Both the position numbers and the translations under genes were made by a program. Shown piece after piece: positions 2,424-25,697 of a stretch of 64,000 nt of DNA. The notes under the pieces were generated by a model. It did no database searches, was not told where the DNA came from, and worked only from the letters and a program-made list of their open reading frames with translations. Position 1 is the stretch's first letter; every line of letters begins with the position of its first letter. This DNA is from an uncultured Clostridia bacterium (GTDB lineage Bacteria; Bacillota; Clostridia; Peptostreptococcales; Anaerovoracaceae): contig CAUWIT010000008.1 of assembly GCA_963558965.1 (NCBI GenBank), forward strand, positions 11,423-75,422. Reading direction: 5' to 3'.

Positions 2424-4636
2424 ATGAAATTTTTAATGCGAGCTGCTAACCCTGAATTGCGCTTTGTCGTAAAGTCATTATCGACCATAGCATTCATACA
2501 GCTTTCGGAGCCTACTAGCACAACTCCTTTTTTACCTCTTGTAACCCCAGTATACAAAAGGTTTCTATTTCCAAGTACCGGTGGCACCCAAGTCATAGGC
2601 ATAATCACCACAGGAAACTCACTTCCCTGACTTTTGTGGACAGTCATAGCATACGCAAGCTCAAGTTCATCAAGCTGAGAAAACTCGTAATCTACATACC
2701 TACAACCATCAAACACCACAGTCATCTTATTTTCATCTTTATTTATTTTTTTAACAACTCCAATTTCTCCGTTAAACACCCCAGTACCCTCAGAAAAATC
2801 ATCAGTGTTTAGCCATTCTAGAGTGTAATTGTTTTTTATTTGCATAACTTTGTCAAATTCACGAAATACCCTGTCTCCAATAGTTTTTTCATTAAGACTA
2901 TCACTAGGCGGATTTAACACATTTTGCAATTCCTTGTTTAAATTTGCACTTCCAAGGACACCTTTTTTCGTTGGAGTTATTACCTGTATATCTTGAGTTT
3001 TATCGTCAACATCATAAAATCTTGGCAACCTAGTTTCGCAAAGCTCCACAATCGTATTGAGCATTTCTCTTTCACTACTTCTATTTAAAAAGAAAAAATC
3101 TTTATCTTTTTTGTTACAATATGGATACTCTCCATCGTTTATGCGGTGGGCATTTACAACAATCATACTCTCCTGTGCCTGTCTGAAAATCTGAGTCAAT
3201 CGCTCAGAATAAATGTATTCGCTTTCGATTATATCACGCAAAATATTTCCCGCACCAACTGAAGGTAGCTGGTCAGCGTCTCCTACAAGTATAAGTCTAG
3301 TTCCATTAGGAATGGCCTTTAGCAGTGCATCCATCAACATCAAGTCTACCATTGATGATTCGTCAATAATTATTGCATCAAACCCTAGCGAGTTAAGACT
3401 GTTTTTACCAAACCTCATAGTCTTTGATTCTTCATCATAGTAGTATTCCAACAATCTGTGAATAGTATAAGCCTCTTTGCCTGTAGTCTCCATCATACGT
3501 TTAGCCGCTCTACCAGTAGGTGCAGCAATGGCCGTTTCAAATTCACCACAAGATAAAATATTTAAAATCCCGTTGATAATAGTTGTTTTACCAGTACCAG
3601 GTCCCCCTGTAATAACTGAAACTCCATTGTTTAAACAAGTTTTCATAGCACTTTTTTGCTCTGCTGAAAAACTTATCATCATCTCCTGTTCAGTTTGTCT
3701 GATTAAATTATCTATTTCCAAACAAAGAGGTTTTAGGGAACTTTGACAAAGTGATACAAGTCTTTTAGTTACATTTTGCTCAGCCTTGTAGTATGAAAAG
3801 AGATAGACCACCTCTTCATTGTCAACTTTATCCACTTTTACAACCCCATTAAGTCCAATTTCAACTAATCTATCCTCAACATTTTCAATTGGAACATCAA
3901 GTAGTTCTGTGGCTGTTTTTTCTACAAGTTCTTTTCTAGGTGCATAAGTATGACCAGCTGCAACATATCTGTTAAGCATATATAGTATGCCGCTTTCAAT
4001 ACGATATTCATCACACTGATCAATGCCTAATTTACTTGCTATTTTATCCACCTTTTTAAATCCAACCCCAAAAACTTCGTCAATTAAATTATATGGGTTT
4101 TTCTTGATTTCATTTATTGATTCACTGCCGAAAACTTCAAATATTTTTATAGCAAAATCAGCGCCTATATCATACTGCTTTAAAAACATAGTAACTTTTG
4201 CAAGTTCATTGTTTTCCTTGAAAGCTGCAGTAATTGTAGCCGCTTTTTTCTTGCCTATACCGGATACAGTTTCCAATTTTTCAGGATGTTTTTCTATAAT
4301 CTCTAATGTTTTTGTTCCAAACTTATCAACTATAGCTTTGGCCATACTAGGCCCTATACCCTTTAAAATACGCGAAGATAAAAAACTTATTATACCTTCT
4401 TCAGTTGTTGGCAATACTTCCTCATAAGTTGTAAAAGCAAACTGTTCACCGTATTTAGGATGATCTTTAAAATTCCCTGTAATCATATAGGTTTTTCCTT
4501 TTGTAGGACTAATCATATTGCCAACGACAGTAAATTGTTCATCTTCAGTTTCAAAAATTGCTACTGTATATCCGTTTCCTTCGTTATTAAATATTACTTC
4601 GGCTATTTTGCCTGTTAATTCAATCTCTTTATCCAT
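2420..4636 (-). CDS. recD2: ATP-dependent RecD2-like DNA helicase
   Basis: N-terminal OB and HhH regions, Walker A GGPGTGKT, APTGRAAKR, DESSM, GDADQLPSVGAG, YAMTVHKSQGSE. Confidence 0.93.
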   Translation of the reverse strand: MDKEIELTGKIAEVIFNNEGNGYTVAIFETEDEQFTVVGNMISPTKGKTYMITGNFKDHPKYGEQFAFTTYEEVLPTTEEGIISFLSSRILKGIGPSMAKAIVDKFGTKTLEIIEKHPEKLETVSGIGKKKAATITAAFKENNELAKVTMFLKQYDIGADFAIKIFEVFGSESINEIKKNPYNLIDEVFGVGFKKVDKIASKLGIDQCDEYRIESGILYMLNRYVAAGHTYAPRKELVEKTATELLDVPIENVEDRLVEIGLNGVVKVDKVDNEEVVYLFSYYKAEQNVTKRLVSLCQSSLKPLCLEIDNLIRQTEQEMMISFSAEQKSAMKTCLNNGVSVITGGPGTGKTTIINGILNILSCGEFETAIAAPTGRAAKRMMETTGKEAYTIHRLLEYYYDEESKTMRFGKNSLNSLGFDAIIIDESSMVDLMLMDALLKAIPNGTRLILVGDADQLPSVGAGNILRDIIESEYIYSERLTQIFRQAQESMIVVNAHRINDGEYPYCNKKDKDFFFLNRSSEREMLNTIVELCETRLPRFYDVDDKTQDIQVITPTKKGVLGSANLNKELQNVLNPPSDSLNEKTIGDRVFREFDKVMQIKNNYTLEWLNTDDFSEGTGVFNGEIGVVKKINKDENKMTVVFDGCRYVDYEFSQLDELELAYAMTVHKSQGSEFPVVIMPMTWVPPVLGNRNLLYTGVTRGKKGVVLVGSESCMNAMVDNDFTTKRNSGLAARIKNFM

Positions 4637-21093: not shown

Positions 21094-21318
21094 TTTGATT
21101 GAATTCGATTCAATTAAGTACAAGGTGCAGACGACCGAAGGTTGCGACCTGCGTACCTCGGTGGAATCAATGGTAAATGTAAAAGGACTCCAAGTCAAAA
21201 ATGACATGGAGTCCTTTGGTTTGCTAACTTTAATTTTTGATATTACGGCTAGCAAAGAACAATTTAAAAAGTTCCATATTAGTTAATACTAGACCATAAA
21301 AGATTAATTACTTTTAAC

Positions 21319-21446
21319 AATCATTAGTCCGGCTGCCTTCACCGTCTTTATTCGTTGGCATTTTTCAGCTGCCTTCACTGTCTTTATTCGTTGGCATTTA
21401 TACAGCTGCCTTCACTGTCTTTATTCGTTGGCACTTACTAATGATT
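21319..21446 (-). repeat. Three 29-bp direct repeats (period 36/37 bp) enclosed by a 10-bp inverted repeat; candidate structured ncRNA
   Basis: Copies at 21332-21360, 21368-21396 and 21405-21433; AATCATTAGT 21319-21328 / ACTAATGATT 21437-21446. Confidence 0.9.
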
Positions 21447-21452
21447 TACACC

Positions 21453-21481
21453 AGTTTAACATATATTTTATGGAATATCAA
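21453..21481 (-). promoter_or_regulatory. Sigma-A promoter pointing into the triple repeat
   Basis: TTGATA (21476-21481), 17 bp, extended -10 TGT-TAAACT (21453-21461); predicted start about 21446-21447, at the closing stem. Confidence 0.6.
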
Positions 21482-21512
21482 GTCCAGCTAATTTAATGAT
21501 TTTAATAATTAT

Positions 21513-22064
21513 TTAAATATAGCAAAACATATCTTTCGCCATTTGCCATAGCTCGTGTAGTAGGTTGTTGTATAGCCCGACCCATTTTTTTGGTTCTTCT
21601 ACTTGCATTTGTGGTGTCATCCCCCAAGATTTTTTCATTTTCGGTTCTTGCTCCATAACCCATTCCTTACAATCTTCTTGGACCTGTAATAGGTGATTTA
21701 TTAATGTTCCCTCTATATAGCCTCTATACAGAAAGTCCCAATCTTATTCCGTATACGCGCAGGATAGATAGCTTAATCTTGCCTTGCCAAATTGGTCCAA
21801 TTTTCCTTCAAATTCCTCTAGTATTATTTCTTCCATTCTGGCTGCTATTTCTTCTGTACTCGCACAATCGTGGAACTCTGACCCTATACAATACATCTCT
21901 TGTTTTTGGTCTTGTTCTATTAGCTGATTTATCAACTCTTCTTCCGTTAAAGCTAGGGGCAATTGATTTAATATCTCTTTTGCCATTTTCTCTACTGATA
22001 AATTCGCTGCTTCGTTGTCTTCTATTCTGTATTTCAATGCTGCCGAGTAAGTTATCATCTTCAT
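21513..22064 (-). pseudogene. TnpV-like protein with N-terminal extension, interrupted by an in-frame TAA at 21744-21746
   Basis: Read-through of the stop continues in frame: FGKARLSYL...E*DWDFLYRGYIEGTLINHLLQVQEDC...WVGLYNNL, resembling TnpV-family GKYGRMR..YL / WV..MNNI motifs. Confidence 0.65.
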
Positions 22065-22149
22065 ATCTATTCTCCTGTCTGTCGCTTTTTTAGTTTGTTA
22101 TATTTTGTATTTTCTTTTGTTGCTAAAACTTTACAGATAATTTATTACA

Positions 22150-23375
22150 GTTTTAGAATAACGAAAAACTTGAAGGTACTAAAACCAATCTACAATAGTA
22201 GAAATTGCTTATATTAGTTTTACAGTAACGGAAAACTTAAGGGTACTAAAACTTATTTGCCATTTTGTTTCTCCTTCTATTCGTTTTACAGTAACGGAAA
22301 ACTTAAGGGTACTAAAACCTATGACTATAGGAGAAATAATAAAAAACTAGTTTTACAGTAACGGAAAACTTAAGGGTACTAAAACAAATCGATTCCATGT
22401 TTATCAGATGAAATAGTTTTACAGTAACGGAAAACTTAAGGGTACTAAAACCCATCAACTTCTACCTGGTTAAATCTAAACGTTTTACAGTAACGGAAAA
22501 CTTAAGGGTACTAAAACACTTGTTCTAACAATTCTTCAAGCGATATCGTTTTACAGTAACGGAAAACTTAAGGGTACTAAAACTATACCTCCCACTATAC
22601 AATAACATAAAATGTTTTACAGTAACGGAAAACTTAAGGGTACTAAAACTATAATGGAGTTGAACTTAAGGAAAGGAGGGTTTTACAGTAACGGAAAACT
22701 TAAGGGTACTAAAACAATTTTATGCTGTGCGCTCCGTCCCAACTAGTTTTACAGTAACGGAAAACTTAAGGGTACTAAAACGAATAGCAATAAAAGAACT
22801 ATATAATAACAGTTTTACAGTAACGGAAAACTTAAGGGTACTAAAACTGAAATTATAAAAGGTACTGAAGCACTAGAGTTTTACAGTAACGGAAAACTTA
22901 AGGGTACTAAAACTCACAAACATTTGATATTACATTCAATGGTGTTTTACAGTAACGGAAAACTTAAGGGTACTAAAACACTTGTATTAGTGTATCGTCA
23001 ATACTTTTAGTTTTACAGTAACGGAAAACTTAAGGGTACTAAAACTGTGAGAAATGTCTACAGCTGCTTTGACAAGTTTTACAGTAACGGAAAACTTAAG
23101 GGTACTAAAACATGTTTGCCTCTGTAAGTGCTACACTTGCAGTTTTACAGTAACGGAAAACTTAAGGGTACTAAAACCAAATAGAAAGAGAAAGAATCGA
23201 CTATATTGTTTTACAGTAACGGAAAACTTAAGGGTACTAAAACGGGCTATTATCAATTAATTTGTTTATATTTGTTTTACAGTAACGGAAAACTTAAGGG
23301 TACTAAAACATGATGACTTTTGACGATCTTAAGACTTTAGTTTTACAGTAACGGAAAACTTAAGGGTACTAAAAC
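22150..23375 (-). CRISPR. Type II-A CRISPR array, 19 repeats and 18 spacers (30-31 bp)
   Basis: 36-bp repeat GTTTTAGTACCCTTAAGTTTTCCGTTACTGTAAAAC (minus strand); degenerate terminal repeat at 22150-22185 marks the trailer. Confidence 0.98.
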
Positions 23376-23403
23376 CTCAAATCGTCATTTGAAGTTTTAG
23401 TTA
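23376..23403 (-). promoter_or_regulatory. CRISPR leader with leader-anchoring sequence ATTTGAG
   Basis: ATTTGAG abuts the first repeat, matching the known S. thermophilus CRISPR1-type anchoring motif; the leader is only 28 bp. Confidence 0.75.
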
Positions 23404-25569: not shown

Positions 25570-25585
25570 ATCAATTACTCCTAAA

Positions 25586-25683
25586 GAAAAAAGGAGAGGA
25601 AATCCTCTCCTTTTGAATTCGGCATTAAGCCTTATTTTAGTAGGCCCTCAAGCCTTTCGTTACTGTACAAGGCGTCCCTTGTA
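25586..25683 (-). ncRNA. tracrRNA
   Basis: Anti-repeat 25634-25668 complementary to the crRNA repeat; nexus AAGGCUUAAUGCCG; terminator AAAAGGAGAGG-AUUU-CCUCUCCUUUUUU; promoter TTGATA(25712-25717)-17-TATAAT(25689-25694). Confidence 0.9.
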
Positions 25684-25697
25684 CTTACATTATACAA

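Follow-up and report, generated by a model that had tools for sequence, protein, structure and literature searches.

Canonical type III toxin-antitoxin operons consist, in this order, of a promoter, tandem antitoxin repeats, a terminator and a toxin gene (PMC5086642), an order that recurs at one of the loci described below. Crystallized ToxI RNAs adopt an H-type pseudoknot whose single-stranded overhangs bind ToxN and in which the adenines of the long loop dock on a 4-bp stem 1 (PMC8860590). The known ToxN/AbiQ cleavage sites are AA/AU, A/AAAA and A/AAA (PMC5086642). In escape mutants of Pectobacterium phage TE, a ToxI-like array that is unlinked from any toxin gene, termed pseudo-ToxI, can neutralize ToxN made elsewhere (PMC5086642).

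The window analyzed here, a 64,000-nucleotide stretch of DNA from an uncultured Clostridia bacterium, carries three 36/37-nt repeats on its minus strand (21319-21481), behind a sigma-A-like promoter and between the arms of a 10-bp closing stem. We are close to certain that this feature belongs to the toxIN/AbiQ family, as a ToxI-type antitoxin array that has become separated from its toxin. Among known systems, it comes closest to ToxI_Bt/ToxN_Bt of Bacillus thuringiensis plasmid pAW63 (PDB 4ATO; Rfam RF02519), with which the array shares ~34-37-nt tandem repeats, an H-type core with a 4-bp stem 1 (GGU/ACC type), a short loop 1 and a 4-bp stem 2, an A/U-rich loop 3 and A-rich single-stranded spacers. 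Unlike ToxI_Bt, the window array has no adjacent terminator or toxin, its stem 2 is GGCA/UGCC, and its register is permuted and enclosed by the 10-bp closing stem; the cognate toxin, which lies elsewhere in the genome, is ~33% identical to ToxN_Bt. The window array is unlinked from any toxin gene, as is the pseudo-ToxI of phage TE, but the latter is phage-borne and was selected as an anti-defense device, whereas the window array is chromosomal, lies in a mobile-element remnant and is near-identical to the natural antitoxin of a resident toxin. A sequence-only reading of this DNA had suggested an orphan type III ToxI-like antitoxin, a suggestion that can now be tied to a specific ToxN/AbiQ toxin in the same genome; its remark that the RNA is not a known motif no longer holds, since the array belongs to the known ToxI family.

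Organization of the array and its promoter

Read along the minus strand, the feature runs TTGATA, 17 nt, TGT-TAAACT, 6 nt, AAUCAUUAGU, AAG, three units, G and ACUAAUGAUU. Its parts and its nearest flanking elements are as follows.

21476..21481, minus strand: -35 hexamer TTGATA, from the promoter scan; an identical CTTGATA heads the toxin-linked arrays
21453..21461, minus strand: extended -10, TGT-TAAACT, from the promoter scan
21437..21446, minus strand: AAUCAUUAGU, 5' arm of the closing stem, close to where the transcript is predicted to begin
21430..21433, minus strand: first UGCC, the 3' strand of a stem 2, whose proposed partner, going by the family architecture, is the last GGCA
21418..21429, minus strand: spacer 1, AACGAAUAAAGA, an A-rich single-stranded tail, placed by its position in the family alignment
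21393..21417, minus strand: predicted pseudoknot 1, CAGU-GAA-GGCA-GCUG-UAUAAA-UGCC, from the parse, the stem 1 covariation and the stem 2 permutation test
21381..21392, minus strand: spacer 2, AACGAAUAAAGA, from the sequence
21357..21380, minus strand: predicted pseudoknot 2, CAGU-GAA-GGCA-GCUG-AAAAA-UGCC, from the parse, the covariation and the permutation test
21345..21356, minus strand: spacer 3, AACGAAUAAAGA, from the sequence
21330..21344, minus strand: 5' part of predicted pseudoknot 3, CGGU-GAA-GGCA-GCCG, with a compensatory G-C in stem 1, from the sequence and the stem 1 covariation
21319..21328, minus strand: 3' arm of the closing stem, ACUAAUGAUU, the perfect complement of the 5' arm
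21181..21217, bidirectional: intrinsic terminator AAAGGACUCCA...UGGAGUCCUUUU, read from the sequence
21502..22064, minus strand: broken acidic TnpV-like gene that stops after codon 106, with a weak Pfam TnpV match (2.9e-4)

Tandem Repeats Finder (TRF) reported 2.9 copies with a period of 37 and 94% matches at 21332-21437; like ToxI, the array thus consists of near-identical direct repeats of ~34-40 nt in tandem. Units 1 and 2 read CAGU...GCUG and unit 3 reads CGGU...GCCG. All of the sequence features described in the sequence-only reading are present where it placed them: the promoter TTGATA-17-TGT TAAACT lies on the minus strand at the coordinates above, the arms of the 10-bp closing stem (21446-21437 and 21328-21319) are perfectly complementary, the three repeats of period 36/37 agree with the TRF result, and the compensatory CGGU/GCCG change in copy 3 is real and sits in a stem that covaries across the family.

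The promoter TTGATA-17-TGT-TAAACT is the sole TG-extended match within 1.3 kb around the array. It scores 9/12 against the consensus, plus the TG; a ATATGTTA block at the extended -10 is common to it and the toxin-linked promoter, while its -10 is unlike that of the toxin-linked copy. The total of promoter-like sites in the surrounding 1.3 kb was no higher than in shuffles, and the array promoter is therefore a consensus match only. The terminator at 21181..21217, which was overlooked by the scan program because its loop exceeds 8 nt, is likely the 3' end of the array transcript, whose predicted length would then be ~265 nt; by the same reading of the sequence, it also serves the convergent flavin reductase operon. 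Minimum-free-energy folding of the 136 nt with nested pairs gave an unexceptional result (z = -1.8), as expected, because the folding program cannot model pseudoknots.

An additional AATCATTAA lies 12 nt upstream of the -35 (21493-21501, minus strand) and corresponds to the 5' arm of the closing stem in the form found in the toxin-linked copies. This 9-mer occurs in the window at chance frequency, and its position may be a recombination scar.

The repeat unit has the pseudoknot layout of ToxN-linked arrays

We gathered arrays upstream of ToxN genes from plasmids and a phage (pAW63 ToxIN_Bt, a Clostridioides phage, a Fusobacterium plasmid and a Sutcliffiella plasmid), from 34 IMG/VR loci and from 400 genomes of the same class. 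Of the 68 loci examined, 33 had an array, with a period of 28-50 nt. When these 33 were parsed blindly for a pair of helices that exclude each other, ~20 of them, pAW63 ToxI_Bt included, shared one layout, namely, an A-rich spacer, stem 1, a short loop, stem 2, stem 1', an A-rich loop and stem 2'. In sequence terms, the family starts with the spacer AAAAAG(U/C), followed by S1a, (C)GGU or (C)AGU, an L1 of 1-4 nt and an S2a of 3-5 nt, and continues with S1b, ACC(G)/GCCG/ACUG, L3, UAUAAGU or UAUAAA, S2b and the next spacer. The window unit matches this layout exactly as CAGU-GAA-GGCA-GCUG-UAUAAA-UGCC-AACGAAUAAAGA.

The sequence-only reading had proposed collecting homologues and examining them for covariation, and both stem 1 and stem 2 covaried across the ToxN-linked arrays. 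In an alignment of 22 sequences, one pair of stem 1 was G-C in 17, A-U in 5 and unpaired in none. The covariation score of this stem was 0.316 versus 0.228 in shuffles, a level that 0 of 500 shuffles reached, and the signal collapsed in slid registers. The A-U state occurs in the window array and in two unrelated viral-contig arrays, and therefore does not trace to one single event. Stem 2 varies by array (GGCA/UGCC, GCCU/AGGC, CUCC/GGAG, CCUCA/UGAGG, CCCC/GGGG, UCCA/UGGA and others), and stem 2 loops fit their own downstream partners, with a mean helix of 4.0 versus 3.19 when partners were swapped (0 of 5000 permutations reached the observed value).

These comparative data place the GGCA of a window unit in a pair with the UGCC of the following copy. 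The register read earlier from the sequence, in which the pseudoknot formed within a unit, does not agree with the family parse and the permutations; what had been called A-rich linkers is loop 3 of the pseudoknot in the family register, and the AACGAAUAAAGA stretch, taken earlier for a loop, is the inter-unit spacer, where the cleavage site is expected. Spacer 1 is likely a ToxN cleavage/binding site, judging by the A-rich ToxN/AbiQ sites (PMC5086642) and by its position in the family alignment. The comparative evidence thus points to a unit with an H-type pseudoknot core flanked by single-stranded A-rich tails.

Two loci of the collection showed other arrangements. IMG/VR contig L062 has two 34-nt ToxI-type arrays (505-603 and 734-840, with 2.9 and 3.1 copies) that have unlike stem 2 sequences and both lie upstream of one ToxN gene. 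At L089 (G579:C1), a ToxN homologue has longer unlike repeats, AACAUUAGGUUAGA..GAGCCUUUAGG, ~400 nt upstream, without 34-38-nt units; these repeats were overlooked by TRF at the settings used.

A permuted register with a closing stem

Ordinary ToxI arrays begin with a spacer and stem 1 and comprise ~n.2 copies, whereas the subfamily of the window array begins with the 3' strand of stem 2 (UGCC) and ends with stem 1 and GGCA. A closing stem was present at the window locus, at the toxin-linked locus of the same genome and at L109, and its 3' arm only was seen at L008, whose sequence begins inside its array; none of such strength was found among ~30 other arrays. At pair 9 of the stem, a compensatory change separates the window array (G-C) from the toxin-linked copies (A-U).

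The closing stem may replace the covalent continuity of loop 3. It would bring the last GGCA near the first UGCC so that the two could pair, and n units would in this manner yield n pseudoknots; after cleavage in the spacers, it would also hold the last antitoxin unit together. The single unit at the toxin-linked locus could form a pseudoknot only via its closing stem, or else the intact toxin there would depend on the window array in trans.

A cognate toxin on a mobile element in the same genome

Exactly three loci with such units were found in the whole genome: the window array and two loci on contig C6 (G000:C6). This contig carries a conjugative/mobilizable element that encodes a MobL relaxase, a split C5 methylase, a giant ORF with an SNF2 helicase, an M23/glucosaminidase wall hydrolase and a HipA_C protein.

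Locus 1 (G000:C6:1823-2600) is a paralogous type III operon of array, terminator and toxin. Its array (G000:C6:2509-2551) is one unit, AUGCCAACGAAUAAAGUCGGUGAAGGCAGCCG, which is identical to window unit 3 at 30 of 31 nt, is enclosed by the same closing stem (UCAUUAA/UUAAUGA) and lies behind a promoter homologous to that of the window array (here CTTGATA, 17 nt, TGT-TACTAT). Downstream of it come, in this order, a U-run, a terminator that is strong, an RBS and an ORF of 202 aa (G000:C6:1823-2431). The ORF product matched the full Pfam model ToxN_toxin (PF13958) at 2.8e-36 and PADLOC AbiQ at 9.4e-34; its best PDB match was ToxN_Bt (4ATO, 4.6e-18), followed by ToxN_Pa (2XD0), E. coli ToxN (7D8O) and AbiQ (4GLK). 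Locus 1 is thus a ToxN/AbiQ gene whose own array has a unit of the window type. Close relatives of the toxin numbered three among 5.8 billion protein clusters, the next representative being 40% identical, and deep covariation inside the exact subfamily is therefore not possible.

The number of units in the toxin-linked array varies among samples (1, 2 or at least 2). One other sample with an identical toxin has two units, a CAGU unit and a CGGU unit joined by UAUAAA, within the same closing stem, and contigs with an 88%-identical toxin begin inside the array and hold at least 2 units. The CAGU-then-CGGU order and the UAUAAA linker are the same in these other samples, whether the toxin is identical or 88% identical.

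At locus 2 (G000:C6:18394-19024; L031 2395-3024, minus strand), an intact array of 3.2 units of 38 nt (AUGCCAAUGAAGAAAAGUCGGUGUAGGCAGCCGUAUAU; G000:C6:18904-19024), whose homology with the window unit is clear, precedes a terminator and then a broken ToxN homologue. The latter is 37% identical to the locus 1 toxin, has an early stop and lacks its N-terminal part.

Two further observations concern the element and its relatives. In L011 and L012, from other samples, a deletion (~2840-3000) runs from just past the toxI promoter into the toxin gene and takes the whole antitoxin and ~80 N-terminal toxin codons together. On C6 itself, a 2439-aa open frame (G000:C6:10974-18293) with SNF2/helicase domains at its C terminus overlaps, in another frame, the 177-aa TnpV-like gene described below; the 5' end of this ORF is probably an accidental fusion of frames, because the region (residues ~250-435) is low-complexity, Arg-rich and less conserved than the 177-aa frame.

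Neighborhood of the window array

No ToxN gene or remnant was found at the window locus with 40 diverse ToxN queries (E <= 10), which bears out the earlier observation that no toxin gene is adjacent. The series of array, Rho-independent terminator and ToxN gene is absent there, the next terminator belonging to the convergent operon, which encodes flavodoxin, CMD, aldo-keto reductase and FMN-reductase proteins on the opposite strand. A 177-aa TnpV-like gene that is intact on the element contig (C6:17003-17533) is present here as a broken copy, split into two short ORFs, 21744-22064 (106 aa) and 21502-21663 (53 aa). This broken element gene marks the ~1-kb wedge that separates the CRISPR trailer from the reductase operon as a mobile-element remnant. 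The CRISPR array (22149-23376) has 19 repeats, the last of them degenerate, and 18 spacers of 30-31 nt, none of which matched the genome outside the array.

Database searches and toxin-less arrays in other genomes

An Rfam search, another check that the sequence-only reading had proposed, matched no family to the array, either at gathering scores across the whole window or at E <= 10 across 1.3 kb. The sole match, SpF66 (E 0.82), overlies the neighboring gene and the terminator and was rejected as noise. The Rfam ToxI model, RF02519 (gathering threshold, 50 bits), matched neither the window region nor the toxin-linked L109 at E <= 10. This model scored the pAW63 units at 59, 47 and 40 bits and Fusobacterium at 22.5 bits, and it is narrow, of the pAW63 type. 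A BLAST search with the array against 200 genomes of the family returned marginal chance matches only, and an exact-pattern scan of viral contigs returned 0 matches. Fifteen single exact-pattern matches in genome contigs were rejected as unrelated; they were mostly GC-rich, and none had the flanking UGCCAAC. Pattern scans of JGI metagenomes gave 0 matches and then one in a UDP-glucose dehydrogenase-like gene; outside the species, none of the exact-pattern matches was real.

When 400 genomes of the class were searched with a covariance model built on the unit, eight arrays adjoining ToxN genes were recovered. Arrays without an intact toxin were also seen. At L114 (~1400-1580), a toxin-less two-unit array with a terminator lies between a PP-loop ATPase-like gene and enolase, in a genome whose one ToxN gene has an unrelated array. 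At L117 (~1480-1560), a single toxin-less unit with a terminator directly follows a HIT-family gene, and at L110 (~1380-1575) an array precedes a toxin gene reduced to its first 28 codons. These toxin-less arrays look like decay products, and antitoxin arrays have repeatedly outlived the toxin.

Conservation of the solitary array

Homology between the window and the toxin-linked locus is confined to the stretch from the -35 through the 3' arm of the closing stem. The units and loop 3 are identical at 66/68 positions, compared with 9/23 for the promoter spacer, -10 and leader (Fisher p = 7e-9); the -35, the ATATGT block and the closing stem are kept, and the U-run that follows the closing stem in the toxin-linked copies is lost at the window. 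This pattern of sequence identity indicates that the RNA and the elements of the promoter have been under constraint, which may in part date from the time when the toxin was still attached. The identity of the units does not by itself prove selection on the orphan array, as the conservation could predate toxin loss.

Five conspecific metagenome contigs span the site, and all of them keep the array in place, each with 3 units or with 2; of three further contigs, one breaks off within the array and the others just short of it. The strains differ by ~6 SNPs in 4.6 kb and are so alike that conservation of the array among them is no evidence of selection. Their CRISPR arrays have only the trailer-end spacer(s) in common, and much of the turnover of spacers therefore came after the ToxI array was in place. 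The FMN-reductase protein of the window locus was indexed, in its exact form, in 44 blocks, and the toxin and its near relatives in ~ten contigs; by this rough count, the chromosomal locus looks more widespread than the toxin-bearing element.

The linkers of the window array (21332-21437; L036-L040) take several forms among these strains: UAUAAA and AAAAA, or AAAAA and AAAAA, in arrays of three units, or an array of two units.

Discussion

We consider it reasonably probable, at about 0.6, that the feature as a whole is a solitary toxI array that would supply antitoxin in trans to an element-borne ToxN. Each unit would fold into a pseudoknot in which stem 1 pairs C(A/G)GU with GC(U/C)G, loop 1 is GAA, stem 2 pairs GGCA with the following UGCC and loop 3 is A-rich, with single-stranded AACGAAUAAAGA spacers parting the units. 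The 10-bp closing stem would join the ends of the array, and the third pseudoknot would form across them. The matching toxin would be the 202-aa ToxN-family ribonuclease of the conjugative/mobilizable element, which has one cis antitoxin unit in this strain. ToxN would cut the array transcript in the A-rich spacers, the processed pseudoknots would trap the toxin in inactive RNA-protein complexes, and the chromosomal array would thereby give antitoxin in trans, buffering or pre-empting the toxin of the element. Transcription, processing and trans-neutralization are predictions from sequence, and we infer the split of the third pseudoknot and the site of cleavage.

A further-reaching version, which we think rather unlikely, would make the array a maintained gene for RNA immunity or anti-addiction: the element could be tolerated, lost or cured, e.g., by the adjacent CRISPR-Cas, without host killing, and the cis antitoxin would thereby have been free to shrink to one unit. 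In the same version, the closing stem would make the three pseudoknots into a ring that prefigures the 3:3 ToxI:ToxN triangle, and the third unit would come in two parts, one from each end (5' and 3') of the transcript.

Alternatively, the array could be an inert relic, the remnant of the type III locus of a decayed element from which the toxin was deleted, with no selected role. It may still be transcribed in that case, and any effect on an element-borne toxin would be incidental. The recurrence of toxin loss in the family means that this explanation deserves serious weight, and we regard it as possible, if not the probable one. It accords with the position of the array against a broken TnpV-like element gene, with the intact array ahead of a broken toxin in the same genome, with the toxin-less arrays, or array beside a toxin stub, in other genomes, and with the missing U-run after the closing stem. 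Decay without a role fits less well with the intact -35, TG-extended -10, closing stem (including its compensatory change) and three units, when the non-functional positions of the promoter have diverged. It also fits less well with a near-identical cognate toxin in the same cell whose cis array is down to one unit, and with retention of the array in every conspecific contig that spans the site.

Two other explanations deny that the array acts on ToxN, and both appear very improbable. The feature might be a repeat that acts at the DNA level (iterons, a recombination site or an oriT), or it might serve as a sponge for some protein different from ToxN; direct repeats within an inverted repeat do recall some origins, and the toxin-linked copy lies ~1 kb from the MobL relaxase gene. 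However, RNA pairing is preserved by covariation in stem 1, stem 2 and the closing stem, the paralogous locus has the canonical type III operon layout (PMC5086642), and the window locus is without a rep or relaxase gene. Still harder to credit is the proposal, made in the sequence-only reading, that the modules mimic the tracrRNA nexus and bind Cas9 as a decoy or as a CRISPR accessory RNA. The array does lie ~700 bp past the CRISPR trailer in the same orientation, and its AAGGC...AUGCC..GAAU is partly like the nexus AAGGCUUAAUGCCGAAU at 25617-25633. But this AAGGC...AUGCC is ToxI stem 2, and the array RNA has no anti-repeat pairing with the CRISPR repeat beyond chance, the longest complement being 8 nt versus 8.6 in shuffles, whereas the genuine tracrRNA at ~25570-25690 has an anti-repeat. 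The GGCA/UGCC motif also occurs in two toxin-linked arrays far from CRISPR, the toxin-less arrays of other genomes adjoin enolase or a HIT-family gene, and no spacer targets the toxin-bearing element (spacers compared with the whole genome and the element contigs).

Precedents for supply of antitoxin from a solitary locus exist among type II systems, in which orphan antitoxins such as chromosomal ccd homologues are toxin-less and could neutralize the homologous toxin of a mobile element. Those antitoxins are proteins, whereas that of the window is an RNA whose anti-addiction role is a hypothesis only. The arrays at L110, L114 and L117 likewise have ToxI-type units without an intact adjacent ToxN; unlike them, the window array has its own promoter, a closing stem and 2-3 units among strains, and unlike the genome of L114, the one other case checked, the window genome holds an intact near-cognate toxin elsewhere.

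The identification removes a candidate new RNA class, since the element is the RNA half of a known phage-defense/plasmid-addiction system. Its permuted register and terminal closing stem are missed by the Rfam ToxI model and by searches confined to the neighborhood of toxN. Toxin-less ToxI arrays seem recurrent, and annotation should recognize them rather than call them novel sRNAs. More generally, type III antitoxin arrays can exist apart from the toxin, with their own promoter and with a matching mobile-element toxin in the same cell. If the array acts in trans as proposed, it would be an RNA version of the anti-addiction idea that has so far been shown for protein antitoxins.
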